From NCBI GenBank assembly GCA_963663165.1, contig OY760175.1, positions 3,840,001-3,904,000 of the forward strand: a stretch of 64,000 nucleotides of DNA, given 5' to 3'. A program made the position numbers and the translations under genes. Below are positions 25,953-52,021 of the stretch, in pieces. The notes below the pieces were generated by a model that was not told the DNA's origin, made no database searches, and saw only the letters and a list, made by a program, of their open reading frames with translations. The DNA comes from an uncultured Desulfospira sp. GTDB lineage: Bacteria > Desulfobacterota > Desulfobacteria > Desulfobacterales > Desulfobacteraceae. Numbering within the stretch: position 1 is the stretch's first letter; every line of letters begins with the position of its first letter.

Positions 25953-27491
25953 CCCTACAACGTGACTTATATTTAATATTATTATTTTAGTTAACATAAT
26001 CTGCTATACTCCGCAATATAACTTTTATATAGGAGGTAGAGTATGTTGCCTGAAATCCGAAAAGATGAGTACCTTTATCCTATCCCCAAATTTGATATCT
26101 GTGAAGGGGATGTAAAAAATTTTTTCAATGAACTTAAAGGGTTTCATGAAATTTTCCACGACTGTTTTCATCGTTCTGAGTCAAGGGAACATTTTTTCAG
26201 GTATATGGCTGGGCAATTTAGTGACCTGGAAAGAAAATCAATTGAACCCATTGCTCTGGCCGTTGAAGATGGCAATGTTAGGGCAATGCAGCGTTTTATT
26301 AGCGATGCTGAATGGAATGGCGCCAATATTATGGCCAAGTATCGTAATCTCATAAATGAAGATATGGGGACACCTGATGGCGTTCTTATTTTTGATGAAA
26401 GCGGTTTTGTTAAAAAAGGCAATGAATCCATCGGTGTTGCCAGACAATATTGCGGGAATGTCGGCAAGGTTGAAAACAGCCAAGTGGGTGTTTTTGCAGC
26501 CTATGCTTCCCCAAAGGGCTACGGATTGATTGATAAACGACTGTTTATACCTGAACTATGGTTTAAAGACGATCACAAACAGGGAAGAAAAAAGTGCAAA
26601 CTGCCTGAGTCTGTTTCGTTTAAGACAAAACCGCAATTGGCTTCCGAAATGTTGAACGAACTCGCAGAAGAAGCCATCGTGCCGGTTAAGTATGTTACCG
26701 CGGATTCATTGTATGGCAACAGTGATGATTTTATTGAAGCTGTTGAGCAACATCCGGATTTGACCTATTTTGTAGAAGTTCCTTGTAATACTCAATGCTG
26801 GTTTAACAGACCTATTACCGTTGAAAAAACTTACAAATACAAAGGAGAGCAGCGTACAAAAATAGTTGTTGAAAAATCCTCCAAAAAGCCGGTCGATGTC
26901 AAAACTATCGCAAAAAATATAAATGATTTTTTCTGGTACCGCCGGAAAGTATCTGAAGGTACCAAAGGACCTATTGAATATGAATTTACCAAAAGACGAG
27001 TGGTACTTTCCAAAGGAAACACGCCTACAAAATCGGTGTGGCTGATCATGAGGCGAACCCTTGGGAAATCCCCGGATTATAAATTTTTCCTTAGCAATGC
27101 CGGGGTTAGTGCCAGATTAAAGCTTTTTGTATGGCTTAGTGGTATTCGTTGGGCAATTGAACAGTGTTTTGAGGAAACCAAGACTGAACTCGGCATGGAT
27201 CATTATGAGGTCCGTAAATACCCAGGCTGGAATCATCATATAATAACGTGCATGCTTGCACATTTTTTCTTGTGGCACCTGAAAATCAGGATGGGAAAAA
27301 AAAGCTCCATCTATTACAGTGTCGCAGCTTAGAATACTAATGGAGGTGGTTTTGCCATTGAGACCTTGTCATTTTCATACCGTTATACAATCGGTTTTGT
27401 ATTACCAAAGGCGCAATCACGCTGCATATCTATCGCATCGAAAAAGGAGGCTTCTTGATAGAAAGAATACACACTAAGTCACGTTGTAGGG
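25953..27491 (+). mobile_element. IS701-family insertion sequence, copy 1 (1539 bp)
   Basis: Perfect 17-bp TIR CCCTACAACGTGACTTA / TAAGTCACGTTGTAGGG; CTAT direct repeats at 25949-25952 and 27492-27495. Confidence 0.93.
26043..27332 (+). CDS. IS701-family transposase, with likely frameshift extension to 27477
   Basis: RKSIEPIA, IFDESGFVKKG..SIGVARQYCG..GKVENSQVGV, VTADSLYG, RWAIEQCFEETKTELGMDHYEVR. Confidence 0.93.
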   Translation: MLPEIRKDEYLYPIPKFDICEGDVKNFFNELKGFHEIFHDCFHRSESREHFFRYMAGQFSDLERKSIEPIALAVEDGNVRAMQRFISDAEWNGANIMAKYRNLINEDMGTPDGVLIFDESGFVKKGNESIGVARQYCGNVGKVENSQVGVFAAYASPKGYGLIDKRLFIPELWFKDDHKQGRKKCKLPESVSFKTKPQLASEMLNELAEEAIVPVKYVTADSLYGNSDDFIEAVEQHPDLTYFVEVPCNTQCWFNRPITVEKTYKYKGEQRTKIVVEKSSKKPVDVKTIAKNINDFFWYRRKVSEGTKGPIEYEFTKRRVVLSKGNTPTKSVWLIMRRTLGKSPDYKFFLSNAGVSARLKLFVWLSGIRWAIEQCFEETKTELGMDHYEVRKYPGWNHHIITCMLAHFFLWHLKIRMGKKSSIYYSVAA

Positions 27492-27679
27492 CTATAATGG
27501 CTTAGTGAATTTTATGTTCTATAAAATTGATTTTTGACCGCTAAATTCAGATACAACATATAGCGGTTGGTCGATTTATGAAAAAAACCGGAGTTTTAGG
27601 ACTTGGAAAATTCGTAGAATTTACCACCCTGTCTTTTGATCGAATTACCACCCGCCTGGTGAATGAACTCCAAAGATAG

Positions 27680-27712
27680 AAAAGCCCCTGAGTAAAGAGC
27701 TACTCAGGGGCT
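27680..27712 (-). terminator. Intrinsic terminator of the interrupted cold-shock gene
   Basis: AGCCCCTGAGTA / TACTCAGGGGCT stem with a U-tract on the minus strand, 27 bp after the csp stop at 27740. Confidence 0.75.
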
Positions 27713-27739
27713 ATAATGTCACTGGATTAAAATGGTATA

Positions 27740-27755
27740 TTAAATCACGGTCACA
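27740..27755 (-). pseudogene. Displaced 3' end of the cold-shock gene (V-T-V-I-stop)
   Basis: Minus strand GTG ACC GTG ATT TAA; joins in frame with GCA AAT at the other side of the transposon. Confidence 0.85.
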
Positions 27756-27893
27756 TGAGAATGGTCACAAAAAATCATGGAAAAATTGAAGATAATTTGC
27801 AAGATATGTCAGGTTTGAGGCAGAAGTTCCCCTGTTTATCTCGCAAATAATCGTGAAACTCCTGCCTCCCCACCCAATAACAGGGCAGGAGAT

Positions 27894-28481
27894 ATGCTAT
27901 CAGAAGTTCTGAAAAACGAAAGTTTTTTTTGGGATCTATACAAAATAGATCTGGCAACAGCCGAACGTTATAGACAGATGAAGTGCCCCCACTGCCAGGG
28001 ACCGTTGTATTATGCCAATTATCCGCGCAAACCCAGGGGGGAGCCTGAAGGGTTGTCTGAAGAATGTTTTTTACAATTCAGTTTATGTTGCGGAAGGGAA
28101 GGCTGTCGACGTCGTTTGATCCCGCCAACCTGCCGTTTCCTTGGTAAAAACATTTACTGGTATGCGGCCATTCTGACGATTGTGTCCGACTGGCAGAACC
28201 AATCTGTAGGTATCACGATGTCCAGGTTTGCTGAAACAATCGGTATCTCCCGCAACACCCTTAGCCGCTGGGTCAGCTTATTCAAAGAAATATTTCCAAC
28301 AAGCTCTCAATGGAAGAAAATCCGGGGCCGAGTACCTGCAAGCGTAAAAAATGATCGTCTTCCAGCAAGTTTGGTCAACTTCTATCTGCATCAACAGGCG
28401 TCCATCAAAAAAACGTTGATCTCCTGTTTGTCATTCTTGTCTCAAGGCAGTGAAATATCACAAAAAATAAGGGCCGGGTAA
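27894..28481 (+). CDS. Transposon orf1: Zn-finger plus HTH protein
   Basis: CPHCQG...CCGREGCRRR and HTH-like IGISRNTLSRW. Confidence 0.75.
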   Translation: MLSEVLKNESFFWDLYKIDLATAERYRQMKCPHCQGPLYYANYPRKPRGEPEGLSEECFLQFSLCCGREGCRRRLIPPTCRFLGKNIYWYAAILTIVSDWQNQSVGITMSRFAETIGISRNTLSRWVSLFKEIFPTSSQWKKIRGRVPASVKNDRLPASLVNFYLHQQASIKKTLISCLSFLSQGSEISQKIRAG

Positions 28482-28596
28482 TCTCACGCAGAAGATGGGC
28501 GTGGCCTTGGGCGCTCAACTGTTCTATCAAAGGGGCCGGGATTTTTATCAGCATTTCGCTGAAAATTTTAACTCAAAATTGAAAGGACCCCGGCCT

Positions 28597-30042
28597 ATGA
28601 ACAGTAAAAACCAAAGTCCGGTTGATAACTGGGCTTTGTTTCGCTTCTCAGTCGTTGGCGGTTTGCTGGCAAATCCGCCGGCCAAAGGTGAGCTGCGCAA
28701 GGAACTGGAAAAGCTTTCCTATCAGATTTACACCCATCCCATCACGAACGAATCAACGGTATTTCATTTTTCAACTATTGAAAGCTGGTATTACAAGGCA
28801 AAAAATGCCCAGGACCCCATTATTGCTTTAGGGCGGAAAGTTCGTTCTGACTATGGCGGTTCAATTGTATTCACACCTGAACTGATCCGGATGCTGGGCA
28901 GACAATACCGGACTTATCCGAACTGGAGCTACAAACTGCACGCAGATAATTTCGCAGCAGAACTCCAGGAAAAGGAGGCTTCAGTATCGGTACCATCCTA
29001 TGCCAGTGTCCGGCGGCGGATGATCGAAAGGGGGTGGACCAGGAAGCCCTCAGCAAAGAAAAAACAGACAGCGGGTATGAAAATTGCCGCAAAGCGGTTC
29101 GAAAGCCATGAAATCCGAGGATACGAAGCAGAATATGTTCACAGCCTGTGGCATCTGGATTTTCATGAAGGCAGTCTGCGGGTGGTGGATAACAACGGTA
29201 ACTGGTATACGCCCAAAGCCTTATGTATTCTTGACGACCACTCCCGCCTGTGCTGCCACATCCAATGGTATTCAGGAGAAACCACCCAGGATTTGATTCA
29301 TGGATTGACCCAGGCCTTTTTCAAAAGGGGGCTTCCCAGGGCACTGATGACGGACAACGGATCTGCCATGACCTCCCATGAGTTTTGCAACGGGCTTAAG
29401 AAAACAGGGATACTTCATGAAACGACATTGCCCTACAGCCCTTATCAAAACGGTAAGCAGGAAGCCTTTTGGGGCACCCTTGAAGGCAGATTGATGGCCA
29501 TGCTGACCCGGGTGGACCCTCTGACACTGGAATATCTCAATCACCGCAGTCAGGCTTGGGTCGAGATGGAATATAACAAAACCAGGCATAGTGACATCGG
29601 CACATCTCCTGTTCAACGCATGCTTGAAGGCAAAGATGTTTCCCGGCCGGCACCGGATGAAGAACAATTACGTTTCGCCTTTACAGTTTGCGAAGTCAGA
29701 AATCAGCGCAAGTCTGACGGTACCGTGTCCATCAACGGGGTAAGATTTGAGATCCCTTCCCGGTTTCACCATATCCCTCGGTTACATGTCTGCTTTGCCA
29801 ATTGGGATAAATCCATGGCCTGGCTCATGGACCAGAGAACCGGCAAACAGATTGCGCCGATCTACCCCCAAGACAAAATCAAAAATGCTTCAGGAAAACG
29901 AAAGATCAAGTCGAGACCTGAACATACCATTCTACCGGATGAAACATTGAAAGAATCCGAGCCTGCATTATTAAGAAAACTGATGGCCGAGTATGCCCAA
30001 AGCGGCATGCCCCCAGCCTATCTGCCCAAAGGAGAATCATGA
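28597..30042 (+). CDS. DDE transposase with rve/Mu-like core and Mu-type C-terminal domain
   Basis: WHLDF, MTDNGS, QNGKQE with DD(35)E spacing; RKSDGTVSINGVRFEIP; GAAAGGA RBS before ATG 28597. Confidence 0.9.
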   Translation: MNSKNQSPVDNWALFRFSVVGGLLANPPAKGELRKELEKLSYQIYTHPITNESTVFHFSTIESWYYKAKNAQDPIIALGRKVRSDYGGSIVFTPELIRMLGRQYRTYPNWSYKLHADNFAAELQEKEASVSVPSYASVRRRMIERGWTRKPSAKKKQTAGMKIAAKRFESHEIRGYEAEYVHSLWHLDFHEGSLRVVDNNGNWYTPKALCILDDHSRLCCHIQWYSGETTQDLIHGLTQAFFKRGLPRALMTDNGSAMTSHEFCNGLKKTGILHETTLPYSPYQNGKQEAFWGTLEGRLMAMLTRVDPLTLEYLNHRSQAWVEMEYNKTRHSDIGTSPVQRMLEGKDVSRPAPDEEQLRFAFTVCEVRNQRKSDGTVSINGVRFEIPSRFHHIPRLHVCFANWDKSMAWLMDQRTGKQIAPIYPQDKIKNASGKRKIKSRPEHTILPDETLKESEPALLRKLMAEYAQSGMPPAYLPKGES

Positions 30043-30866
30043 ACAACAAACAGCTTCTGGCTTATTACGGCCTTAAATGGAATCCTTTTTTGTCCAATAT
30101 CCCCGTGGAGGCTTTATGGCATCCGCCATTGATGAACAGTTTTATTTTTCGTCTTGAGAATATGACCCTGAACGGGGGCTTTGCTTTGATCAGCGGGGAC
30201 CCTGGCCTTGGCAAATCCAAGGCGTTGCAGATGATTGCCCAAAAGTTCGGTAAACTTGACGAGGTAGTTGTCGGGGTAATGGAACGTCCCCAAAGCAGTG
30301 TCGGAGACTTTTACCGGGAAATGGGAGTTTTGTTTGGTGTCAATTTAAGCCCTGCCAACCGGTATGGCGGGTTCAAGGATCTTCGGGAGCGCTGGAGGCA
30401 TCATGTAAAAACCACCTTGTTCCGGCCCATCCTGCTCATAGATGAAGCCCAGGAGATGCTGACCGGATGCTTAAATGAACTGCGTTTGTTGAACAGCGCG
30501 GACTTTGACTCCCAAAACCTGTTGACCACCGTGATTTGCGGCGATGACCGGCTCCCGGAACGGTTCAGATCAAGATCCCTGGTATCGCTGGGAAGCCGGA
30601 TGCAGTTCCGGTTGACGCTGCTTCCCTATGTCCGGGATGACCTGCTGGATTACATGGATCACAGCCTGAACCAGGCCGGCGCCCCGCACTTAATGACGAA
30701 AACTCTGATCAGGACCCTTGCAGACCATTGCGCCGGCAACCTGCGGGTTCTTAACAATATGGCCGCAGACCTGCTGACTGCGGGGATTGAAAAAGAACTC
30801 AATCAATTGGACGAAAAGCTTTTTATGGAAGTCTATTCCAGACAGCCGCCCAATAAAAAATCATAG
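30039..30866 (+). CDS. ExeA-like AAA+ ATPase, transposition helper
   Basis: Walker A GDPGLGKS, Walker B LLIDEAQ, GNLRVLNN; overlaps the transposase stop (ATGA). Confidence 0.88.
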   Translation: MNNKQLLAYYGLKWNPFLSNIPVEALWHPPLMNSFIFRLENMTLNGGFALISGDPGLGKSKALQMIAQKFGKLDEVVVGVMERPQSSVGDFYREMGVLFGVNLSPANRYGGFKDLRERWRHHVKTTLFRPILLIDEAQEMLTGCLNELRLLNSADFDSQNLLTTVICGDDRLPERFRSRSLVSLGSRMQFRLTLLPYVRDDLLDYMDHSLNQAGAPHLMTKTLIRTLADHCAGNLRVLNNMAADLLTAGIEKELNQLDEKLFMEVYSRQPPNKKS

Positions 30867-30875
30867 GAGAACAAT

Positions 30876-31058
30876 ATGGGTATTTATGATGATCCGGACA
30901 TGAAACTGGAAGAAATCACACAGGAATTGGAACATTTTATCCTGGATATGGTCCTTGCCGGACTTGAAAGCTTGAATATGGAATATCGGGCCTTCAGGCG
31001 ATTCCAGAAACAAAGGCTCACGGAAAAGAACCGTCATAAAGAACACGAGCCGTTTTGA
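30876..31058 (+). CDS. Small helical hypothetical protein within the transposon
   Basis: 60 aa, AGGAG RBS, in operon with the ATPase. Confidence 0.55.
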   Translation: MGIYDDPDMKLEEITQELEHFILDMVLAGLESLNMEYRAFRRFQKQRLTEKNRHKEHEPF

Positions 31059-31095
31059 ACGTACGCCCGGACTCCAAAGGTCCGGGCCTGCCTCA

Positions 31096-31884
31096 ATGGA
31101 AAAAATACTTTGGAAAATCGGCAATTATTTTAAGCACCGCTTCAGCCTGGCAGTTCTTGATGAAATTAAGGGCCGGTGGCCCGTTCTCCCCTCTTGTAAA
31201 AACATCCCTTATCTTAAAGCTGAAAATGCCGGAGGAAGGCACATCCTGATCAGACCTGATCCTGTTATTCAGCCTTATTATTTTCTTGCCGACGATTTAA
31301 ACATTGACCTGCTTATCCGGCATCATCAATCCATATCAAACCGCTTTAAACCAGGCAGGATGGTTATAGAAACATCTCCCGGCAATTATCAAATTTGGAT
31401 TCACAGTGACCGTCCGTTAAGCCTTCCCGAAAAAAAGTATTGGTTGGAAAACATGCACAGTGATCCCGGCGCCGACCCGAAAAACAGGTGGGGCAGATGC
31501 CCCGGGTTCAGGAACAGAAAAGCAAAACACAGAACGCCTTCAGGACAATACCCTTTGGCAAAGCTATTATGGGTGGACTGGAAATGCCAGGCTATTGTCC
31601 CTGAAATAGAATTATCCTCCCAACCTCAAGAAGTCTTTTCCCATCAACCCCGGGGGGGAGTGTGCCATAACGGTAATATTTCCCGCTCCCTCTATGATAA
31701 GGGTGACGAATCTGCCACTGATTTTGCATATGCTCTGGCCCTCTATAGAAGAGGTTTCTCACGAATGGAAATTTACAATCGCATTATCAATGAAAGGCAG
31801 GATTGGATTAATCATGCGGGTGAACGAAAAAAAACACAGTATCTGATCAGGACATTACAGAAAGCTGAAAAAATTATCAGTTAA
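31096..31884 (+). CDS. RepB'-type (RSF1010-like AEP) DNA primase
   Basis: LADDL, VIETSPGNYQIW, DPGAD...RCPGFRN, C-terminal DESATDFAYA...YLIRT helical bundle. Confidence 0.82.
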   Translation: MEKILWKIGNYFKHRFSLAVLDEIKGRWPVLPSCKNIPYLKAENAGGRHILIRPDPVIQPYYFLADDLNIDLLIRHHQSISNRFKPGRMVIETSPGNYQIWIHSDRPLSLPEKKYWLENMHSDPGADPKNRWGRCPGFRNRKAKHRTPSGQYPLAKLLWVDWKCQAIVPEIELSSQPQEVFSHQPRGGVCHNGNISRSLYDKGDESATDFAYALALYRRGFSRMEIYNRIINERQDWINHAGERKKTQYLIRTLQKAEKIIS

Positions 31885-31915
31885 AATCGGGCTCTCTTGG
31901 CCTCCGGGAAAGCCC

Positions 31916-32152
31916 TTATTTACCATGAAACGTTGTCCATGAATTATCGTGATTGCTCTCAACATTTGCAGCTGACGGTCCTTTGGGACCCTGTTCAATG
32001 TCGAATGACACTTGATCACCCTCATTGAGAGTTTTAAAACCAGTTGCATTGATGCCTGAATGATGGACAAATACATCTTTGCCACCACCTGCATGTTCAA
32101 TAAATCCAAAACCTTTTGACTCGTTAAACCATTTTACGATACCGTTTGCCAT
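31916..32152 (-). CDS. csp: Cold-shock protein interrupted by the transposon, now with a chimeric C-terminus
   Basis: [31 protein letters not shown]; the last 14 residues ([14 protein letters not shown]) are read from the transposon end. Confidence 0.92.
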
Positions 32153-32801
32153 GTAGGCGTTCTCCTAAATAAGAATAAAAATAAATCGTCTCGATCTTAA
32201 AGAATAATCACTGATTTCTCGGGGAAAATATCTAAGGAAGAAACTCAAGCACTTCAAAATAGCGCAATGTTGGTCATTTTACAGATTACTGAGGAGAAGT
32301 CAAGAAAAAAAATATTATTTCAAAATAACATTTTTTTTGCAACAATTTTGAGTAGGATTAGCAGGAATTGAAGTGTTATTTGCTATATATCAAAATATTG
32401 TAATTATATATAATAAATCAAATTGTTAGAAGAGTTTCAAAAGCACTTTTTAGCACTTTTTGGTTAGAATGAAACCCTAAATTACGATTAAATGAAATGG
32501 CAAATCCACTACTTTATATTTAATTCAGTTGCAATTCTTACCCAATGTTGTATGCTGTTTATAAAATAAATCAGCCAGAGTAAATTCCCCCTTGGTTAGA
32601 CTAAATCACTTAGGCGGTCCTCGCTACTTAATCTTTACCCTATCTTGTATATTTTTGTCTGATTTTTTATTGATTATCACAAAAGTTGATTAGCTGTTTG
32701 ATTAATCATTAACACCTTAAATTTAAACCCAAATTCGAATCCTTAAGTTGTTTTGGATGTTGTTTGGTACTTTCGGATGAGATTACAGGAAAGGATTGGA
32801 A

Positions 32802-32966
32802 ATGCAAAAGAAACCTAAATCGAAGTATGGATACAGTAAGAGTGAGTTGATTGAAATTATAAATGAAATTGATGCCGACCGACATCAAATGAGAATTAGA
32901 ACCGAAAATCCGAACACTCATAGGAGAAGCAATCGCCCCCATTTGGTTTTGAGAAATGAAAAATAG
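32802..32966 (+). CDS. Possible small hypothetical protein (54 aa)
   Basis: MQKKPKSKYGYSKSELIEII... open frame with a purine-rich RBS; below the ORF-track cutoff. Confidence 0.3.
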   Translation: MQKKPKSKYGYSKSELIEIINEIDADRHQMRIRTENPNTHRRSNRPHLVLRNEK

Positions 32967-32986
32967 TCAGAATTAACTTACATACA

Positions 32987-33193
32987 TTGAAGAGCCCAAA
33001 TATGACTGATAGCCTTGATCAATCAACAGTTTCGTCCAATAATAATTACGAATTACCGATTGATGTTTGTGATCATATGATTTCCACATCGCTTAGAGAC
33101 TTGAGAAAAAAGTATTCGGATTTACGTATCAAGAAATCGTCTGATGCTGATATAGAAGGAAAAACGTTAAAAAAAGAAGAAGAACCAGACTGA
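32987..33193 (+). CDS. Hypothetical protein
   Basis: Open frame only. Confidence 0.3.
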   Translation: MKSPNMTDSLDQSTVSSNNNYELPIDVCDHMISTSLRDLRKKYSDLRIKKSSDADIEGKTLKKEEEPD

Positions 33194-33848
33194 AAACAAA
33201 CCTGGTGCTAAGTTAGAAGGAATTGAATAGGATTCGCTTATGTCTGACATCCGGGTTCGCTATACCACATTGGAAGTTGGGAATATTGATATTCATATCC
33301 GTATGCTGAGGGATTTGCTTCAGTTCAGGGATAATGACGGTATTGCTAGAAGCCTTGGGATTTCTTCTGCCGCCTGGCCAATGTTCGGTGTGATCTGGCC
33401 TTCAGGTATGGTTCTGGCAAATCTGATGTTGGATTACAATGCCAAAGGGAAACGCGTTTTGGAGGTGGGGTGTGGAATCGCTTTGGCCAGTTTGGTTCTG
33501 AATGAGCGGTTAGCTGATATTACCGCAACGGACCATCACCCAGAAACAGGGGGTTTCCTCTTTTATAATGTAAGTCTGAATAACGGGAAAAACATTCCCT
33601 TTGTGCAAACTGGATGGGCTTATTCCGATATCGATCAACTTGGGACATTTGATCTTATTATCGGATCTGATCTCCTATACGAGGAACAGAATATTGAGCT
33701 TTTATCCACATTTATAGATAAGCATAGTCGACGTCAGTGCGAAGTGCTTATGGTTGATCCTGGCCGAGGATTGCATGCAAAATTTAGCAAAAAGATGGTG
33801 GGCCTTGGGTATTCGCATTCTCAAAAAAAACCAAACAATACAGACTAT

Positions 33849-35387
33849 CCCTACAACGTGACTTATATTTAATATTATTGTTTTAGGTAACATAATCTGC
33901 TACACTCCGCAATATAACTTTTATATAGGAGGTAGAGTATGTTGCCTGAAATCCGAAAAGATGAGTACCTTTATCCTATCCCCAAATTTGATATCTGTGA
34001 AGGGGATGTAAAAAATTTTTTCAATGAACTTAAAGGGTTTCATGAAATTTTCCACGACTGTTTTCATCGTTCTGAGTCAAGGGAACATTTTTTCAGGTAT
34101 ATGGCTGGGCAATTTAGTGACCTGGAAAGAAAATCAATTGAACCCATTGCTCTGGCCGTTGAAGATGGCAATGTTAGGGCAATGCAGCGTTTTATTAGCG
34201 ATGCTGAATGGAATGACGCCAATATTATGGCCAAGTATCGTAATCTCATAAATGAAGATATGGGGACACCTGATGGCGTTCTTATTTTTGATGAAAGCGG
34301 TTTTGTTAAAAAAGGCAATGAATCCATCGGTGTTGCCAGACAATATTGCGGGAATGTCGGCAAGGTTGAAAACAGCCAAGTGGGTGTTTTTGCAGCCTAT
34401 GCTTCCCCAAAGGGCTACGGATTGATTGATAAACGACTGTTTATACCTGAACTATGGTTTAAAGACGATCACAAACAGGGAAGAAAAAAGTGCAAACTGC
34501 CTGAGTCTGTTTCGTTTAAGACAAAACCGCAATTGGCTTCCGAAATGTTGAACGAACTCGCAGAAGAAGCCATCGTGCCGTTTAAGTATGTTACCGCGGA
34601 TTCATTGTATGGCAACAGTGATGATTTTATTGAAGCTGTTGAGCAACATCCGGATTTGACCTATTTTGTAGAAGTTCCTTGTAATACTCAATGCTGGTTT
34701 AACAGACCTATTACCGTTGAAAAAACTTACAAATACAAAGGAGAGCAGCGTACAAAAATAGTTGTTGAAAAATCCTCCAAAAAGCCGGTCGATGTCAAAA
34801 CTATCGCAAAAAATATAAATGATTTTTTCTGGTACCGCCGGAAAGTATCTGAAGGTACCAAAGGACCTATTGAATATGAATTTACCAAAAGACGAGTGGT
34901 ACTTTCCAAAGGAAACACGCCTACAAAATCGGTGTGGCTGATCATGAGGCGAACCCTTGGGAAATCCCCGGATTATAAATTTTTCCTTAGCAATGCCGGG
35001 GTTAGTGCCAGATTAAAGCTTTTTGTATGGCTTAGTGGTATTCGTTGGGCAATTGAACAGTGTTTTGAGGAAACCAAGACTGAACTCGGCATGGATCATT
35101 ATGAGGTCCGTAAATACCCAGGCTGGAATCATCATATAATAACGTGCATGCTTGCACATTTTTTCTTGTGGCACCTGAAAATCAGGATGGGAAAAAAAAG
35201 CTCCATCCATTACAGTGTCGCAGCTTAGAATACTAATGGAGGTGGTTTTGCCATTGAGACCTTGTCGTTTTCATACCGTTATGCAATCGGTTTTGTATTA
35301 CCAAAGGCGCAATCACGCTGCATATCTATCGCATCGAAAAAGGAGGCTTCTTGATAGAAAGAATACGCACTAAGTTACGTTGTAGGG
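33849..35387 (+). mobile_element. IS701-family insertion sequence, copy 2 (1539 bp)
   Basis: TIRs 33849-33865 and 35371-35387 (one mismatch); CTAT duplications at 33845-33848 and 35388-35391. Confidence 0.93.
33939..35228 (+). CDS. IS701-family transposase
   Basis: Differs from copy 1 at only three residues (G/D, V/F, Y/H). Confidence 0.93.
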   Translation: MLPEIRKDEYLYPIPKFDICEGDVKNFFNELKGFHEIFHDCFHRSESREHFFRYMAGQFSDLERKSIEPIALAVEDGNVRAMQRFISDAEWNDANIMAKYRNLINEDMGTPDGVLIFDESGFVKKGNESIGVARQYCGNVGKVENSQVGVFAAYASPKGYGLIDKRLFIPELWFKDDHKQGRKKCKLPESVSFKTKPQLASEMLNELAEEAIVPFKYVTADSLYGNSDDFIEAVEQHPDLTYFVEVPCNTQCWFNRPITVEKTYKYKGEQRTKIVVEKSSKKPVDVKTIAKNINDFFWYRRKVSEGTKGPIEYEFTKRRVVLSKGNTPTKSVWLIMRRTLGKSPDYKFFLSNAGVSARLKLFVWLSGIRWAIEQCFEETKTELGMDHYEVRKYPGWNHHIITCMLAHFFLWHLKIRMGKKSSIHYSVAA

Positions 35388-44117: not shown

Positions 44118-44852
44118 GGGATACTCCTTTGATAATTGGTGAGTTGGGGGGAATTAAGGAAGACAGGGGCAGATAGAGGGCAGCACCCATTGCCCAGGTG
44201 ATACCGGCACTGAAACCGTCGCCCGGGAGCAATGGTTCCAACTGGTCCCTGATGCCGATAGCGTTACAAACATTTTTCAGGGCATTTTGCATAAGCCCGT
44301 TTCCTCTTAAATTTACCGCATGAAACAGCAACCACATGTTACTTTATGATAAGGGGAAACCGGCTGGTTTCTAATGGCTGTCGGCAGGCGATTTCCCCGT
44401 TATATCTTGCACCAGCCGGTCACGGGCGGTGCGTGCTAAGCTGCCTCAGTGTCTGTTGGGAAAATCAGCCATAAGCGCCTTTTTCTAAAAGCTTTTGTTA
44501 TGTTGCGGCCCTGAAAATAAGCCGTTTAAACTTTAAAAAATTATAAGAAATCAATAGGTTTGGCAAATTGATAATTCTTATGCCCTCTTATTTGCGACAT
44601 CGAAATATTCAATTTGTTTGATTTGTGACGGAGGGGTGGACGCATTTAATATCAAATGCGTTGTTTAACCCGTGTGGCAGGGGCAAATTAAAGCAGTAAA
44701 AGAAGAATTGATTTCAGCATTCTTTGAATAACATTTTTAATAGCATCATGGGAAAGCCGGCCAATAATTTGGGCATCCCAACTGCTTTTCAAGGATGAAT
44801 GTACCGGTGTCCCATCTCATCAGGTTGGGGTGTGGAAAGCATGAATTATTTT

Positions 44853-45707
44853 TCAGTTGGCTGATTTTATATCTTTAATCAGTGTTTTTATCTCAGAGGA
44901 GATCACATTCTGTTCTTTTATCATTTTTGCGAGGTTATATCGGTGGTCATCTTTGAGTTCATATTTTGATTGAAGTCTTAAAATCAATCGTTTGCCGTCA
45001 ATAATGCGGCTAAGACGCCAATATTGATCAAGGTTGTTGTTGCCATCGCAAAAGGCTAATAATCGCGTAGATACACTTTCGAAGTCGCATTCAACATGGC
45101 GTTTATCCAGATGTTCAATGCATTTGGCTTTTATTTGTGCCGGATTGTTCTCTCCGGAAACAAAGTGTGGGACCAACGCTTTTTCACCGGCCATATGCAA
45201 GCAAATATTGGTGGCTGTCACAGGGACAAGATTTTGAGATTGTTGTAAAAGCTGATCTGAAAGCAAATCGTTATCTATACCATCCGGAGAATATTTCCCG
45301 TAATCGGTAAGGAGGGCAAAAATAACTTTTGGATTTAAGAGGTAGTTTTCAATTTCCCATCGGCCAAGGGGTCTGATGTAATCCCCAAAAGGCCTGCTCC
45401 TCTGATAAATTCGATCATCATTTTCCCAAAACAAATCCCACGCATTTTCACGCATCAAGGCATCTCGATCAACGATTCCAAATGAGGGGATCCCCATGGA
45501 ACGATCTTTATCCACAAATCCCACCACTGTTGCACATCCCCCGGACCCGCCATTTTTACTGGATAAAAATTCAATGAATTCACCTTCGTCAAAAAACCAG
45601 CGCTGGAAAATTGCCAGATCAGTTTTAGATTCAAGATAAATCAGTTTGCGTCCGGAATACTTGCCGTCAACCGTATCAGATTTATTTAATGACTTGAATG
45701 TCGCCAT
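44853..45707 (-). CDS. TOPRIM-type (OLD/DUF4435-like) nuclease
   Basis: IYLES..D, GGC..V, GIVDRD, EIENYLL, DGK motifs. Confidence 0.7.
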   Translation of the reverse strand: MATFKSLNKSDTVDGKYSGRKLIYLESKTDLAIFQRWFFDEGEFIEFLSSKNGGSGGCATVVGFVDKDRSMGIPSFGIVDRDALMRENAWDLFWENDDRIYQRSRPFGDYIRPLGRWEIENYLLNPKVIFALLTDYGKYSPDGIDNDLLSDQLLQQSQNLVPVTATNICLHMAGEKALVPHFVSGENNPAQIKAKCIEHLDKRHVECDFESVSTRLLAFCDGNNNLDQYWRLSRIIDGKRLILRLQSKYELKDDHRYNLAKMIKEQNVISSEIKTLIKDIKSAN

Positions 45708-45722
45708 GAAAAATTTCCGATC

Positions 45723-46871
45723 TTATAAATTTTCTTCAATTATGTGTCCGCCTTTTCTCAATCCGGCTTCTTTTGTTTCAAACTCAAAGCCTTTAAGAAT
45801 TTCCCTTGAATGAGTCGTCGCAATAACATGTATTCCAGGCGTTTCAACCACAATTTGTTTTAGAATGTTCAAAATCCGATGCTGCCATTTGGGATGAAGA
45901 TGAACATCCACTTCATCAATCACAATCCAGGTATTCCGGGTCATATGTGCCCCGATCCGAAGCATCATCTGGGCCAGGCTTTTTTCTCCACTGCTCAGCC
46001 GGTCCAGCCTGTGCCTGGACCCTTTATTTGAAATCACGGCCTGTGGCGGATCCTTTTCAACCTCCTCAAGACGCTTATGGGTCCCTTTAAATACCCACTG
46101 GTTGACGTCTTCTATGGCCCTCTGGAAACGATCTTCGTCAATCCACTTGAGCCAGATCAGAAGATTATCAAGGGAATGGTTCCATTCTGCCCTTGAGAGA
46201 AACGGCTTAACCGGACGGTATCTCCAATCTTCCGGTGCTACAATTGCCCTGTCATAGTCTTCAATTTTAGGGATATCCCTGTATGCAGAAAAGTAGAGCA
46301 AAGTCGGTTCGGCAACCCCGCTGTCTCCAAATCCGTCAGGAGGAACGGACATCTGGTTTTGAATGGACCCCAGAAGGTCCTGAATAAAGGTATCACTGGC
46401 TCCGATTTTTTCCATTCGCCCGGAGAAATGGCGCCTGTAGCCGAAGCGATTCCAGGACCCTGCACCGGCAGATTTTAATTCAGAGTCTGTCCAGGCCCGG
46501 ATTGAAGCGGTGTCTTTGGGGCCTGCAATCAGGGACAGAACGGCACTTTGCTGTTCCTGGTTCTGATAGAACCTTACCAAAATATCAAGCTGAGCCCGGG
46601 AGGGGTCTTTTCCCAACATCTCAACCCGGTCAAGGTCTTCATGCCCGAAGGATGTCGGATTCTCCTTTTCAAGCATCCCCATCAGGGTCACCATTACATC
46701 CAGTAATGTCGTCTTTCCCTGCCCGTTTTCGGAAATAAGGAGAAACATATTGCAGGGATCTCCATTTCCATCTGTAAAATCCAGCTCAAACCTATCCCTG
46801 AAAGGGCCGATATTTTCCACCCACATGCGGATGGGCTCAAATCCCTGAATGCTAAAATCACCTGCAGGCAT
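45723..46871 (-). CDS. ABC-type (AAA_21/OLD-like) ATPase
   Basis: SENGQGKTT, signature LSSGEK, IDEVDVHLHPKWQ, ATTHS. Confidence 0.88.
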   Translation of the reverse strand: MPAGDFSIQGFEPIRMWVENIGPFRDRFELDFTDGNGDPCNMFLLISENGQGKTTLLDVMVTLMGMLEKENPTSFGHEDLDRVEMLGKDPSRAQLDILVRFYQNQEQQSAVLSLIAGPKDTASIRAWTDSELKSAGAGSWNRFGYRRHFSGRMEKIGASDTFIQDLLGSIQNQMSVPPDGFGDSGVAEPTLLYFSAYRDIPKIEDYDRAIVAPEDWRYRPVKPFLSRAEWNHSLDNLLIWLKWIDEDRFQRAIEDVNQWVFKGTHKRLEEVEKDPPQAVISNKGSRHRLDRLSSGEKSLAQMMLRIGAHMTRNTWIVIDEVDVHLHPKWQHRILNILKQIVVETPGIHVIATTHSREILKGFEFETKEAGLRKGGHIIEENL

Positions 46872-46873
46872 CT

Positions 46874-48364
46874 TTATTTCCTTTTTAAAGTTCTGACCGC
46901 CTCTTCAATATGGCTTTGTTTTACATGATAGCCATGAACCCTGACAGGTTTTTGGCCTGATAATTTGACAATCATATCTCCATCTCCGGTCAAACCTTCA
47001 GCTCCGGTTTCATCCAGAATAATTTTAGACTCAGAGGCTTTTTGGACGGTTAAGGCAATTCTTGATGGGATATTTGAACGCAACAACCCGGTAAAGGTTT
47101 TGGCATCCGGGCGCTGTGTGGCTAAAACCATATGAATTCCTGAAGATCGCGCTTTCTGGGCCAGAAAAACCAATTGGGTTTCCGTATCCGGACTTCGAAG
47201 TACCAAATCTGCCAATTCATCAACGAAAACAATAATTCTTGGCAAGCTTTGAGCCCCTGAAGCATGATACTCATCTATATTTCTGACTTTTTGGGCGGCA
47301 AACAGCTTTTCACGTTTTTCCATTTCCATGCAAAGCTCCCCCAACGTTTTGGTCACATCTTCGGGTTCTGAAATTATGGGCTGGTAGAGAAAATTTTCCA
47401 GGTCATTATAATCGTTAAATTCCACCCGCTTGGCATCAATAAAACAAAACCGCAGTGACTGAGGGGTGTTTGTTGTCAGCAAAGAGAGAATAAGCGCATG
47501 AATGCATATACTTTTACCACTGCCCGTAGTTCCACCGATCAAAAGATGGGGGGTCTTTGCCAGATCAAAAATAAAAGGATCTCCCATAATATCCACACCT
47601 GGACAGACCGGCAAGTGCCCCTTTCCTACATCCGGAGTCAAACCTGAAAAATCGATCTCAATTTTTTTCCAGGAAGTTTTTTTACGGGGAATATCAATTC
47701 CGATCAGTCTTGGCTCATTTGTTCTGCTAAGAACCAGAGACCCGGTATCTTTTCCCAAGGAAAACGCCAATTTATCAAGATTTTTTTCAAGCCGTTCAAG
47801 GTCCTGAAGGTTCTCCAGATACACAAGATAACGGGACAGCCTTACCCCTTCTATCTCATTTTGGATTTTTCCGGTAACACCGATCTCAGGCAAGACAGAT
47901 GAAAGGTCAGCGGTATCATCCGGTTCCACCGATGTCACCGGCCTGTCCGGTCCGTCGGAAAATAAATCATAAGCCAGAAAAGAATGAAAATCATGCCCAT
48001 CCTTCCAGGATGTGCGGATTTCATGAAGCCCCCTTCGAACGTGGCGCTGCATATATCTCCGGAAAAGCTCCGGATCAGCAAACAGGTCTTCTTCATAATA
48101 GGCACTTAGAACAGCACAGAAGACATCGGTATAATCATCCTCCTGCCGCTCCCCGGTCAATTGTTCAAAACTGTATTCACTGCCCCCTTCTGACCGGTCT
48201 TCAATTTTCTCCCATCCCTGTTCCGGATATTCGGGGATTTTAAGGGAAAGGGCCAGGGCCAGCCTCAATGATACCCATTTGGGAAGGCCTTTAACCCCTA
48301 ACCCTTTGGAGATGATCTGGTCGATGATTTTTTCATCTGAATGGCCGGTATATATTTTTGCCAT
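46874..48364 (-). CDS. DndE-like DNA-binding domain fused to an FtsK/SpoIIIE ATPase
   Basis: N-terminal KWVSLRLALALSL...HVRRGL DndE-like pattern; PHLLIGGTTGSGKS, IDAKRVE, VDELADL, KARSSGIHMVLATQRP, GAEGL.G.GDM; no TM or gamma domain. Confidence 0.78.
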   Translation of the reverse strand: MAKIYTGHSDEKIIDQIISKGLGVKGLPKWVSLRLALALSLKIPEYPEQGWEKIEDRSEGGSEYSFEQLTGERQEDDYTDVFCAVLSAYYEEDLFADPELFRRYMQRHVRRGLHEIRTSWKDGHDFHSFLAYDLFSDGPDRPVTSVEPDDTADLSSVLPEIGVTGKIQNEIEGVRLSRYLVYLENLQDLERLEKNLDKLAFSLGKDTGSLVLSRTNEPRLIGIDIPRKKTSWKKIEIDFSGLTPDVGKGHLPVCPGVDIMGDPFIFDLAKTPHLLIGGTTGSGKSICIHALILSLLTTNTPQSLRFCFIDAKRVEFNDYNDLENFLYQPIISEPEDVTKTLGELCMEMEKREKLFAAQKVRNIDEYHASGAQSLPRIIVFVDELADLVLRSPDTETQLVFLAQKARSSGIHMVLATQRPDAKTFTGLLRSNIPSRIALTVQKASESKIILDETGAEGLTGDGDMIVKLSGQKPVRVHGYHVKQSHIEEAVRTLKRK

Positions 48365-48374
48365 GAAAATTCCT

Positions 48375-50392
48375 TTAGCTGTCCGGGTACATTTGCTTCA
48401 GTCTGGGTTCAGTGGACTCTCCGTCCCAATTCTCCAGTTGGTATTCTTTGTATATGTGTGGGCAGAGCAGCCTGTATTTTTCCTCATCCAGTTCAGAGTC
48501 CGTGGGCAAAAGGATGACCTGCTTTCCCACGCTTGGGTAATAATTTTTCAGCAAGCTTCTTTGATTTACCGCATCCAGCCTTCCTAAAGGAGTATCTATG
48601 ACAACCGGAACCTCCTTTCTTGAAACTGTTTTTAAGGCCCATAATAGGGCCGTAGCAACCAGTTGTTTATTGCCCGAAGAAAGGTTGGTCCGTCCAATCT
48701 CATCCCCGGAATCATCCAGATAGGTTAATTCAAAGGTGTCCGATACCGATATCTTTTTGACCTGGGGGAGATTTGAGATCAATATCTTTGTGTACTTATC
48801 CAAAGTCTCCTCTACATCCCCCCTTTTTAATATTTTCAGATCCTGTTTATACTGGTTGAAAAATTTGCGAAGACCTTTTGCCAGATCAACCTTTTTCCTG
48901 GTCCTTTTGCTCAGTTCAACCTGTTTCTCCTGGTCCCGGATCTCTTTTTTTAATTGCTGGATATGTCTTTGTCTGATTTCTTTCTCAGTCTGGGATTTTT
49001 GAATTTCCTTTTTTATTCCTCCCCGCTCTTCGATTTGCCTTTTAGTTCCTCTGAAAGAAAATTAATTCGTTCCCGCTCTTCATCGGTCAGCCCTGCTGCC
49101 TCGGAAATATCGAAATCAATGCCTGCTATTTCCCGATTAAAGTCATGAATCTGTGCCAGGGTTCGTTTGATCTCCTCCCTGGCCCTGTTTAAGCCCCTAT
49201 ACTGAATAAATTGTTCATGCAATTGTTTGGCCGTTTTGAGGTCCAGTGATACCACGCCTGAATCCATATCCGGTATCCTTGCATCGATCAGGCCAATAAG
49301 ACGTTTTTTCAAGAATCGTTTCTGGCCGGGTTCCAGCTCAGGATTTGGATAGGGCGGCTCATCCAGCAGTCCCGGTACCAGGCTCTTTTTCAGGCTTTCC
49401 AATATTTCGGCCGCTTCACCCAGTTTGCTGCCGGCTGCTTTTTCAATATATTTTTCAGCTTTTTCTACAAGGCCGGGATTGGCCAGCAACGGGGATTCTT
49501 TGCGGATCAGATCCGCAAACAGGGCCTCCCTTTTTTCTTTTTCCGCGACGGCTATCTCACGGGAAGTATTCAAACGCCCAATGTCCTGACGATTCCGGAG
49601 ATATTCCAGTTTTTTCAGTTCATTTTCAATCTCATTGACCTCATGGTCCAGATCCATTTTCTGGTCTTCCCAATCCCGTTGTTTTTCATTTTCCTCTGCA
49701 ATGGCCAATTCATCTTTCTTTAACTGGTCCTGGGTTTCATATAGAATTCGTCTTTTTTCTTCCTCCATAGCATCCTGCTGCCACTCTTTTACCACTGTTT
49801 TAAGCTCTGAACGAAGGTAGTCAATGGGGGCAATATCCAAAAGCCTTTCCATATCCGTTTTAAAGGATTCTTGATCTGTGGATTCCACAAGACGTTCAAT
49901 CTGTTCACTGTCAAAAAAGAAAAACGGAATATAAGCCGGTGGCAGGCGTTGTTCAATAAATTCCCTGGCGTCTTTATCCTGAAGCCGGTTTCCATTATGG
50001 ATAATTTCCAATTCCCCGAAAAAATTTTTGCCATTCAGATCCCATGACCGTTCAGCCAAAACCACTGAACCGGCTTCGGTCCATTCAATGGACACACTGC
50101 ACCGGGTATCCCCCCTCTGAACAGCCTTCCGGTTCACGATTCCCAGCCAGGTTCTACCGTCTCCAATGACAAACCGTTTTTGACCCAGAGGCCGGCCGGT
50201 AATATCCACGGCCAAAGATTCCGTGGTACCGGCAAACAGCAGTTTGAGACTGCGGATAAAGCTGGTTTTCCCGTATCCGTTTCTCCCTGAAATTAAAACG
50301 ATATTTGCCTGTTCACTTCCTCCTGTCAGGTCAAATTCAACCGGGCCAAAATAGGAAAATAGATTGTTGAGGATGATTTTATTGAATTTCAT
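48375..50392 (-). pseudogene. dndD: DNA phosphorothioation ATPase DndD split by a 1-nt frameshift near 49041
   Basis: N-half GRNGYGKTS, FFFDSEQI and coiled coil; C-half LSSGNKQ, IDTPLGRLD, QVILLPTDSE; one extra base at CTAAAAGG restores a 672-aa ORF. Confidence 0.85.
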
Positions 50393-51723
50393 GCGTCAGC
50401 TGTCTCTTGCTGGACCACGGATCGTTCCAGCATTTTTTTTATTTCCCGGGTCAATTGCTTTTTGGCCCCGTAGGTATTCAACGTGGGAAGCTGCTCTTTA
50501 ACCATGTCTAAAAGACTTCGAATCAATTCAGGCGGTAATTCCTCGTAACTTGGCAGCAGTTCATCCAAGAGCCGGTCTTCCTCTGAAGTGCGAAAACTCT
50601 GTTTCATTTCAGATACCTCCCTGTTATATTGAGCGGCAATTTTCAGTGCTGAATCCTGAAAATCAATTTCTTTGGTCCATGTGTCATGTATATAAGCGAT
50701 TTCCATATCAGAAATCAATTGTCGTCCCATCTGCTGTTCTATTTCCAGCAAGTAGTTAAAGATTTCTTTACGGGTATCAAATGTGAAAGGCCCTATGCCT
50801 TTTGAACCGTCCCGTCTGAAAGGCATCCTCCTGCCAGGTTCTTCCCGGATCTGCTTGATCCAGTCCCTGAATTCATTAAGCGGCTTCATCCAGGCTTCCC
50901 CGGTTTGGATAAAACCCTGCATGGAAATATCTTTTTTTACAACCGTACATGTCCAGCAGCCAAACCGGCTTCCACCACAGGAAGGGGACAGCATGTCAAA
51001 AATCATATGACATTCATTCCCTGTAGCTTTGCTGTAGAGTGAGATCAGGTCGTTATGATTGCTTCCCCATGGCGATGGCCTGGTTTGTAAATATTCCCAT
51101 ACCTGATCCGTAGTCCACTCCGCGATCGGAGTTGAAACCAGTGCATTGGAGATTTCATGATGTGGATTTAGCCCCCGATAGCTTTTTTCCCGCCCATTCA
51201 TTCGATTCCGCCGCTCGGAACTCTCATCCATCCGGGTCCCCAAGAGAAGGATAACGCTTCCTTTTTCTCTTGTTATTCTTTCAATTACCTTACGGGTAGG
51301 CCGGATTTTAAGACTGCTGGTACACCAGCGAAACCATCTTGTGGGTGCCGGATACCCCTTTCCAATAAGTTTGGCCCAGAAGGTGGATTCAACTTCCGGT
51401 ACCACGACTTTTACCTGAATGGGCAGCAATCGTTTCTCAACATCCTTTTTAATACAATCAATGGTTTCATGTAAATAAGCTGCAATGTTGGGTGGTTCCA
51501 CACCAGTATCGGAATATATGATATAGACAGGCTTTAGCTTTGAAGGGTCCGTGTCTATCAACATGTGATACACCAATTCCAAAAGGAGTGTGGAATCTTT
51601 GCCCCCTGAAAAGGCAACAACCCATGGGCGCATGTCTTTTTTATATTCTTTTGACAGTTGCTGAATAGTATTTTGGGCAATCGACCCTATGCGGTCTATG
51701 GATATTAAATTTGAATTCATCAT
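50389..51723 (-). CDS. dndC: DNA phosphorothioation sulfurtransferase DndC (PAPS-reductase fold)
   Basis: AFSGGKDS, GKGYPAP..FRWCT..LKI, GTR..ES..R, SCGGSRFGCWTCTVV, GPFT. Confidence 0.92.
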   Translation of the reverse strand: MMNSNLISIDRIGSIAQNTIQQLSKEYKKDMRPWVVAFSGGKDSTLLLELVYHMLIDTDPSKLKPVYIIYSDTGVEPPNIAAYLHETIDCIKKDVEKRLLPIQVKVVVPEVESTFWAKLIGKGYPAPTRWFRWCTSSLKIRPTRKVIERITREKGSVILLLGTRMDESSERRNRMNGREKSYRGLNPHHEISNALVSTPIAEWTTDQVWEYLQTRPSPWGSNHNDLISLYSKATGNECHMIFDMLSPSCGGSRFGCWTCTVVKKDISMQGFIQTGEAWMKPLNEFRDWIKQIREEPGRRMPFRRDGSKGIGPFTFDTRKEIFNYLLEIEQQMGRQLISDMEIAYIHDTWTKEIDFQDSALKIAAQYNREVSEMKQSFRTSEEDRLLDELLPSYEELPPELIRSLLDMVKEQLPTLNTYGAKKQLTREIKKMLERSVVQQETADA

Positions 51724-52021
51724 AATTATGGTTAGGTGGTAATTGTTTTAAATTTTAAATGTATACACATTTTTCCAGGTCATGTCTGCATGTTTTCATT
51801 TAAAAAAGTTGTGTTTGGCAATTAAAGTTTTAGTTTTCTTGCTCGTTGGCGGCAGAAAAGAGGCGGAAAAATTAAAATGAAATAGATAAAAAGTGCCTTA
51901 AGGCCGGAACCACCTATTCTCGGTTTTCTACAGATTCAGAGGGTAACGTCAAAATGCTTTGTGACAGTTTTTCATGCCCGGATTGACAAGAAACAGGGTC
52001 TTGGCCTACAACTGTTCAATC

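Follow-up and report, generated by a model that had tools for sequence, protein, structure and literature searches.

Most genomes with Dnd modification genes have no DndFGH, and in other genomes PbeABCD lies beside the dnd genes (PMC10853773). The same work (Rakesh 2024) notes, as clade-3, fusions of DndE to HerA/FtsK motors that lie beside a DndD-related ABC ATPase without a CxC motif, and gives cellular FtsK, clade-2 DndH and an Orc/Cdc6-linked set as the sole groups with the FtsK-alpha domain. The locus analysed here is a five-gene, Dnd-type cassette of 6.9 kb in a 64,000-nucleotide stretch of DNA from an uncultured Desulfospira sp. (contig OY760175.1 of assembly GCA_963663165.1, forward-strand positions 3,840,001 to 3,904,000; the whole stretch is called the window). 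The cassette is intact and conserved, and its effector arm, an FtsK motor with an ABC-type ATPase and a nuclease of the TOPRIM kind, is unlike DndFGH or PbeA. It is a candidate reader of phosphorothioate (PT) marks with a different effector class in genomes without DndFGH.

Comparison with described systems

With DndABCDE-DndFGH the cassette shares DndC, a DndD-like protein and DndE, and its effector arm has an FtsK-class motor, as in DndH. It differs in that dndA, dndB and dndFGH are absent, the motor is fused to DndE and lacks a restriction-endonuclease domain, and a TOPRIM protein is the nuclease. DndCDEA-PbeABCD likewise has a small protein, a coiled-coil ABC ATPase and a DndE cognate together with a motor and a nuclease. 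The small protein that precedes the Pbe ATPase is matched by an Sp-DndD-like domain of DndC or by a separate open reading frame (ORF; 21/58 loci), and in rhizobial plasmids the same effector block also follows a separate dndACDE set. The window type, however, has a single DndD/DndE pair, no HKD-SF2 PbeA, no CxC motif (0/57) and an ATPase of a separate clade. As in PARIS (AriA-AriB), an AAA_15/21 ABC ATPase gene is followed by a gene for a TOPRIM protein with a predicted AriB fold and the acidic active-site set, but the ATPase is 382 aa long against 464 aa in AriA, is nearer to PtuA and is embedded in a Dnd operon. MADS comprises eight genes. It resembles the cassette as a DNA-modification system with a split ATPase/TOPRIM pair (MAD3-MAD4, with MAD7-MAD8), and PADLOC matches to mad3 (E 2e-14) and mad8 (E 2e-30) were obtained in the cassette; the MADS mark is methylation (PMC13662399), whereas the predicted mark of the cassette is PT.

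The window DndE resembles the clade-3 fusions in being joined to a HerA/FtsK-class motor and in adjoining a CxC-free DndD-related ATPase. Identity with the published clade-3 fusion was nevertheless judged unlikely from the motor type, since the window-type motor has FtsK-alpha and nests within cellular FtsK. No ABC/TOPRIM partner of clade-3 is named in the main text of PMC10853773, supplement apart, where TOPRIM occurs twice, once in an unrelated passage, and TOPRIM is not among the Dnd-linked nucleases of its section 17. The cassette is likewise not described in the accessible text of PMC11464382, PMC12914056, PMC12065111, PMC12193691 or PMC12345140. An earlier reading of the window made from the letters alone (the sequence-only reading) knew of no experimental characterisation; the literature search agreed with it, finding no paper on the five-gene system, although Krishnan 2020 (reference 24 of Rakesh 2024), which lay outside this search, may describe the cassette. 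The locus is easily missed, since standard detectors would be expected to call an incomplete Dnd system with pieces of Pbe, Ssp, Septu or PARIS. With five genes in 6.9 kb, the cassette is small enough to be cloned whole.

Organisation of the cassette

The five genes are co-oriented on the minus strand from 51723 to 44853, located as the sequence-only reading had placed them, and are tightly coupled: dndC and dndD overlap by 4 nt, and the subsequent gaps are 10, 2 and 15 nt (Table 1). Promoter and terminator scans gave counts near the level of shuffled sequence (19 against 12.7 +/- 3.3, and 10 against 10.0, respectively).

Table 1. Genes of the cassette and the slot that holds it, in window coordinates.
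Feature	Position	Strand	Length	Profile
dndC, PP-loop Fe-S sulfurtransferase with Sp-DndD-like tail in last ~70 aa	50389..51723	-	444 aa	TIGR03183
DndD-like coiled-coil ABC ATPase	48375..50392	-	672 aa, allowing for one-base error near 49033	
DndE-FtsK fusion: DndE at residues ~1-135, then FtsK alpha domain and motor	46874..48364	-	496 aa	PF08870, PF01580
ABC ATPase, AAA_15/21 (OLD-family), predicted PtuA-like fold	45723..46871	-	382 aa	
TOPRIM nuclease, predicted AriB-like, DUF4435 neighbourhood	44853..45707	-	284 aa	
Variable cargo slot; hdrA-like operon on one side, PAS sigma-54 regulator on the other	44736..51963	.		

The sequence-only reading had taken dndD to be in need of repair. This was not borne out: one extra base follows position 49033 in all four contig sets compared, which come from public runs (at most three samples and two studies, one run possibly being the window's own source), and with this base restored the dndD frame runs for 672 aa without a stop. 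As the contigs of four runs carry the missing base, the frameshift of the window is very likely an assembly error. Reading dndD as a pseudogene was ruled out by the same base and the open frame.

Conservation and spread

Scanning metagenomes for the DndE part of the fusion gave 109 confirmed loci, the best 80 of which were analysed; 73 are fusions, and the seven with a free DndE were set apart. Where a fusion locus had room for the gene in question, dndD was present in 68/68, dndC in 57/58, the ABC ATPase in 64/64 and TOPRIM in 60/61. The single dndC exception (L148) has the tail alone at the contig start, and the TOPRIM exception (L095) is disrupted by an IS110 copy. The proposal that the FtsK and ATPase/TOPRIM genes co-occur with dndCD elsewhere, on which the sequence-only reading had staked its case, thus held. 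The full order dndC, dndD-like, dndE-FtsK, ABC ATPase, TOPRIM was found in 50 of the 52 long metagenome loci, which reduce to 36 clusters at 90% identity, 20 at 70% and 11 at 60%; at 70%, the complete cassette occurs in 20/20. Gene order is identical in G114, G131 and L002. Active-site motifs are kept in all five proteins across the aligned homologues (motif counts here and below include redundant loci).

The cassette is rare. The DndE part was found in 2/150 relatives and 0/400 genomes of the phylum. Among 1.84 billion representatives searched by profile there were 101 matches, with an FtsK-type motor in 46 of the 49 long ones. When the whole DndE-FtsK alignment was used as the query (1 of 64 collection parts), the search was swamped by cellular FtsK and only 2/80 loci were fusions. 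Pairwise identities of DndD, DndE-FtsK, ABC and TOPRIM correlate over 25 non-redundant loci (Spearman 0.59-0.82), which is to be read as co-inheritance rather than contact, because kin share history.

Flanking ORFs within 1.5 kb were reduced to 105 representatives, of which 87 were scanned. They were mostly unrelated housekeeping genes that differed from locus to locus; none of these 87 belonged to a DndB, DndFGH or cysteine desulfurase family. Four loci (L090, L107, L119 and L143) have the cassette within housekeeping runs such as ahcY-metF, dapF-DUF484-xerC and cobT-cobS, and no recurring mobility gene was found beside it in these four.

DndC and its C-terminal tail

DndC scored 334 bits against TIGR03183 (cut-off 290). 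Its SGGKDS motif and cysteines C134, C238, C249, C256 and C259 are invariant in 52/52 aligned homologues, and the last four cysteines have the same spacing as C262/C273/C280/C283, the cysteines named for E. coli B7A DndC in PMC12193691.

A gap follows dndC in 26/58 loci, and 21 of these gaps hold an ORF of 60-110 aa that resembles the last 70 residues of the window DndC. A profile of the tail and the small ORFs matched the 'DNA modification system-associated small protein' of Mesorhizobium amorphae pM0123d (iE 7e-10), which is PF20306 Sp-DndD and which in turn weakly matches the C-terminus of the PADLOC DndC models (E 0.001). The tails of four canonical DndC proteins also gave a weak alignment, with an hhalign probability of 35% (E 4e-4) against 0.07% for the reversed control. 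By these profile matches the DndC tail is judged homologous to Sp-DndD. The DndD head is predicted to bind DndC residues 433-482 (PMC12193691), and Sp-DndD is predicted to be a DndD-docking adaptor; that the small protein corresponds to the DndD-docking domain of DndC is a testable prediction. As Sp-DndD is a Pfam family, DndD systems with a small protein are already known.

DndD-like ATPase and DndE-FtsK fusion

Six of seven intact DndD homologues scored above the TIGR03185 cut-off. In a quick tree that included four canonical DndD, five methylase-linked and three Pbe-type proteins, the DndD-like ATPases formed a clade of their own (SH-aLRT 100), apart from canonical DndD. No CxC zinc hook was found in any of 57 homologues, whereas all three Pbe-type controls carry one. 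An identity as a CxC-bearing PbeC, which PADLOC scores had suggested, was ruled out by the absent CxC and the separate clade.

The FtsK-alpha domain was detected in 24/41 members of the fusion family. The window protein gave no score for it, and no membrane or gamma domain of FtsK was detected there. Walker A, TQRP and R429/R435 of the motor are kept across 70 aligned homologues. In the tree the motor nests among cellular FtsK, beside an alpha-bearing DndH on a long branch.

ABC ATPase and TOPRIM nuclease

The ABC ATPase keeps Walker A, LSSGEK, DE and the H-loop in 63 homologues. Its model gave VIA Z 22.9 to retron PtuA and 17.1 to AriA, the ranges being 20-23 for retron and Septu PtuA and 16-17 for AriA; its tree is poorly resolved. 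The TOPRIM protein of the window has no Pfam or NCBIfam name and only a weak PADLOC match to AriB (E 1.7e-5), and its homologues carry PF14491. Its model (pLDDT 91) was matched by Foldseek to 8ux9_A (E 4.8e-4) and aligned with AriB over its full length (VIA Z 15.3, rmsd 4.1, 243 residues aligned), OLD being the next family at Z 8.4. By these models the nuclease folds like AriB, and the ATPase like PtuA rather than AriA. Acidic residues E26, D30, D80, D82, E118 and E120 are present in 58/58 homologues and follow the same order as the AriB active-site set E26, D30, D88, E90 and E122 (PMC11464382).

The TOPRIM alignment found no cassette among viral contigs and two weak matches, both to fused AriAB-like genes; the window protein had no match among plasmids, and the profile had none among PDB sequences.

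Partner genes elsewhere in the genome

Profile searches for several of the partner genes that the sequence-only reading had noted as absent from the window covered the whole genome. No second dndC or dndD homologue and no match to DndB was found in the genome, and no TIGR04095 match of the PbeA type exceeded the cut-off; PbeA (HKD nuclease-SF2 helicase) is also not among the cassette genes. The DndH profile, which matched the positive control G018, found nothing in the genome of the window (G000), in G114 or in G131, DndF and DndG not being searched separately, and the sole match to the SspD profile in the genome was dndC of the cassette itself. A nifS gene above the TIGR03402 cut-off, at another site in the genome, is a candidate cysteine desulfurase. 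A second nifS-like gene (G000:C1:5777304-5778428) has a TAG within the profile match, which could mean that the match runs beyond the gene or that the assembly is wrong here too.

Variants and related loci

Mesorhizobium amorphae pM0123d (L179:724-12812, NZ_CP015322.1) carries dndA-dndC-dndD-dndE followed by an effector block in the order Sp-DndD, a second ATPase of the window DndD-like clade, DndE-FtsK, ABC and TOPRIM. A Rhizobium plasmid (L178) has a fragmented copy of this locus. As the block stands beside a separate canonical module in rhizobia, it would serve there as PbeABCD does. The first DndD in these loci has 726 aa, and with DndC being short, the tail may have moved. The window type possibly arose by loss of the canonical DndD/DndE pair. 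Both rhizobial plasmid loci also hold a divergent DGQHR gene.

The seven free-DndE loci (L149, L151, L152, L155, L156, L161 and L162; 7/80) are without the fused FtsK and have the order dndD-ABC-(TOPRIM)-dndE; FtsK is therefore not obligatory. A second, unrelated ABC ATPase/TOPRIM-like pair lies downstream in L151 and L156 (DUF4276, DUF4435), and DruF/DruL-like genes are present in L156.

Strong TOPRIM matches in 200 relatives numbered four, and in two of these (G122 and G587) Dnd genes were not nearby; DndE had no match in either genome, both of which are incomplete. In G587 (L223:3975-6003, G587:C336) the ABC/TOPRIM pair stands alone between housekeeping genes. In G122 (L222:1047-9385, G122:C962) it ends a type III-like CRISPR operon, the ATPase being fused to a RAMP protein in one ORF of 1081 aa, with a Card1-like gene upstream.

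A second DndE-motor fusion, of 508 aa and HerA/DndH-like (PADLOC DndH 1e-40), was found in L224:6588-10950, L225 and L227. It lies with DndD and a small protein, sometimes also with a RAMA-domain gene, next to an N6-methylase, and dndC is absent; its type of DndD occurs in 9/200 relatives, and three of the nine loci were examined. This fusion fits the clade-3 description of PMC10853773 better than the window fusion does. DndE is predicted to have captured a motor twice independently.

Proposed function

The cassette is known here from its gene content, order and intactness, its active sites and folds, its co-inheritance and the mobility of its slot. From these, a self-contained, compact, PT-linked anti-phage system is tentatively favoured, with a confidence a little short of even: it would mark self DNA, scan DNA and abort infection through an ATPase-gated nuclease, probably by way of tRNA. 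Host NifS/IscS would give sulfur to DndC, which would write PT marks on self DNA while docked on the DndD-like head by its Sp-DndD-like tail; this step is suggested by the conservation of the catalytic residues and by the chemistry of canonical DndCDE. DndE would recognise the site, and the FtsK hexamer would move the complex or the DNA. By analogy with AriAB and retron PtuAB, the ABC ATPase would hold the TOPRIM protein inactive until the scanning complex met unmarked DNA or a phage inhibitor jammed it. The released AriB-like nuclease would then most likely cut tRNA, AriB being a tRNA nuclease (PMC11464382), and thereby abort infection. A TOPRIM protein without an added DNA-reading domain, in a portable pair, suits a gated suicide effector. 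In a more specific and rather unlikely form, one DndD/DndE core would write the mark with DndC, read unmarked DNA through a captured chromosome-segregation FtsK and fire a pair of PtuA-type ATPase and AriB-type tRNA nuclease, so that PT would guide abortive infection. Such a system would derive from a rhizobial-like ancestor whose two cores collapsed into one, and Sp-DndD would be an exchangeable adaptor by which enzymes dock on the ATPase head.

Several observations weigh against this PT-linked abortive system. The DndD-like ATPase lies outside the canonical clade, which makes it uncertain that it supports PT writing, and DndC identities track those of the other four genes more weakly (rho 0.36-0.42, 25 loci). 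PT was absent from ten gut isolates that carry dndCD or sspBCD (PMC12914056). Among the free-DndE loci, TOPRIM is present in L162 and absent from L151 and L152, and the pairs without Dnd genes in G122 and G587 indicate that ABC/TOPRIM needs no Dnd core to persist. Positions 28 and 31 of the TOPRIM protein, compared by number and not by superposition, are variable, whereas R28 and R31 of AriB are its AriA-binding arginines (PMC11464382). The related pair MAD3-MAD4 cuts DNA in vitro (PMC13662399). The distinct PT system with an FtsK and ATPase/TOPRIM arm that the sequence-only reading proposed is supported by the co-occurrence, with the qualifications that FtsK is optional and that the pair is found without Dnd as well.

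The DNA cleavage by MAD3-MAD4 also speaks for a true restriction-modification system, in which the FtsK motor would bring ABC/TOPRIM to unmarked DNA, the TOPRIM protein would cut the invader directly as a MAD3-MAD4-like DNase and the cell would survive. TOPRIM is the sole nuclease of the cassette, the effector block occupies the place of the nuclease-helicase Pbe module, and in DndH a HerA/FtsK motor is joined to a nuclease (PMC10853773). The modelled fold points elsewhere, being far nearer to AriB (Z 15.3) than to the OLD/GajA DNases (Z 6-8), with MAD4, which may postdate the library, not among the matches; moreover, the pair persists without PT genes and is retained in the FtsK-less L162. 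Survival by restriction is on balance rather unlikely. Stand-alone and CRISPR-linked copies of the pair would be expected if the cassette consisted of two layers with only loose coupling, namely a Dnd-FtsK module and a co-inherited PARIS-like backup that senses phage DNA-mimic proteins directly and is linked to the module neither physically nor by signalling, and OLD-ABC/TOPRIM pairs are described as backups beside BREX (PMC12839542). The tight coupling and near-invariant order over 20 clusters make such independence distinctly unlikely, as do the lack of any nuclease in a cassette minus the pair and the position of the ABC gene inside the dndD-dndE interval in FtsK-less variants.

The cassette may also have no PT or no defence role and be a selfish addiction module, whose nuclease would kill any cell once the other genes are lost, or a DNA-segregation helper. 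The non-canonical DndD clade, the cellular FtsK type of the motor and a ParE/RHH toxin-antitoxin pair in the slot of a congener are compatible with this. It is nonetheless very unlikely given that the catalytic cysteines of DndC are invariant, that integrase, relaxase and replicon families do not recur beside the cassette and that there were only two plasmid matches among 72,556 records. The PT-linked abortive system is accordingly retained as the preferred reading.

Genomic setting

The cassette is a rare, exchangeable cargo. In the congener G001 the flanks align up to 44735 and again from 51964, with 3.3 kb of different cargo between them, and a more abundant co-occurring relative departs near the left boundary in three of four runs, at about the same points as G001. 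The sequence-only reading placed the cassette in an AT-richer island, and its G+C content is indeed 44.7%, lower than the 54-56% of the flanks and the 50.0% of the genome; the contrast is only local and moderate, because 7.9% of the genome's 7-kb windows reach an equally low G+C. The cassette genes have a GC3 of 0.39-0.50, compared with 0.64-0.70 in four flanking genes. No second copy of the slot-end sequences was found in the genome, and no tRNA genes were found in the window.

The cargo of the G001 slot (L172:894-4195) consists of the ParE/RHH toxin-antitoxin pair and other ORFs, and it has an 82-bp repeat in common with the left edge of the slot. Elsewhere in the window, a second low-GC island (26043-35228) encodes a DDE_5 transposase in two copies, an rve integrase accompanied by an AAA gene, and also a RepB primase and a methyltransferase. 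Four paralogous molybdopterin oxidoreductases are encoded at 4333-6849, 8633-11275, 16372-18972 and 21346-23931, the first domain of each being AhtL-like (pyrogallol transhydroxylase type).

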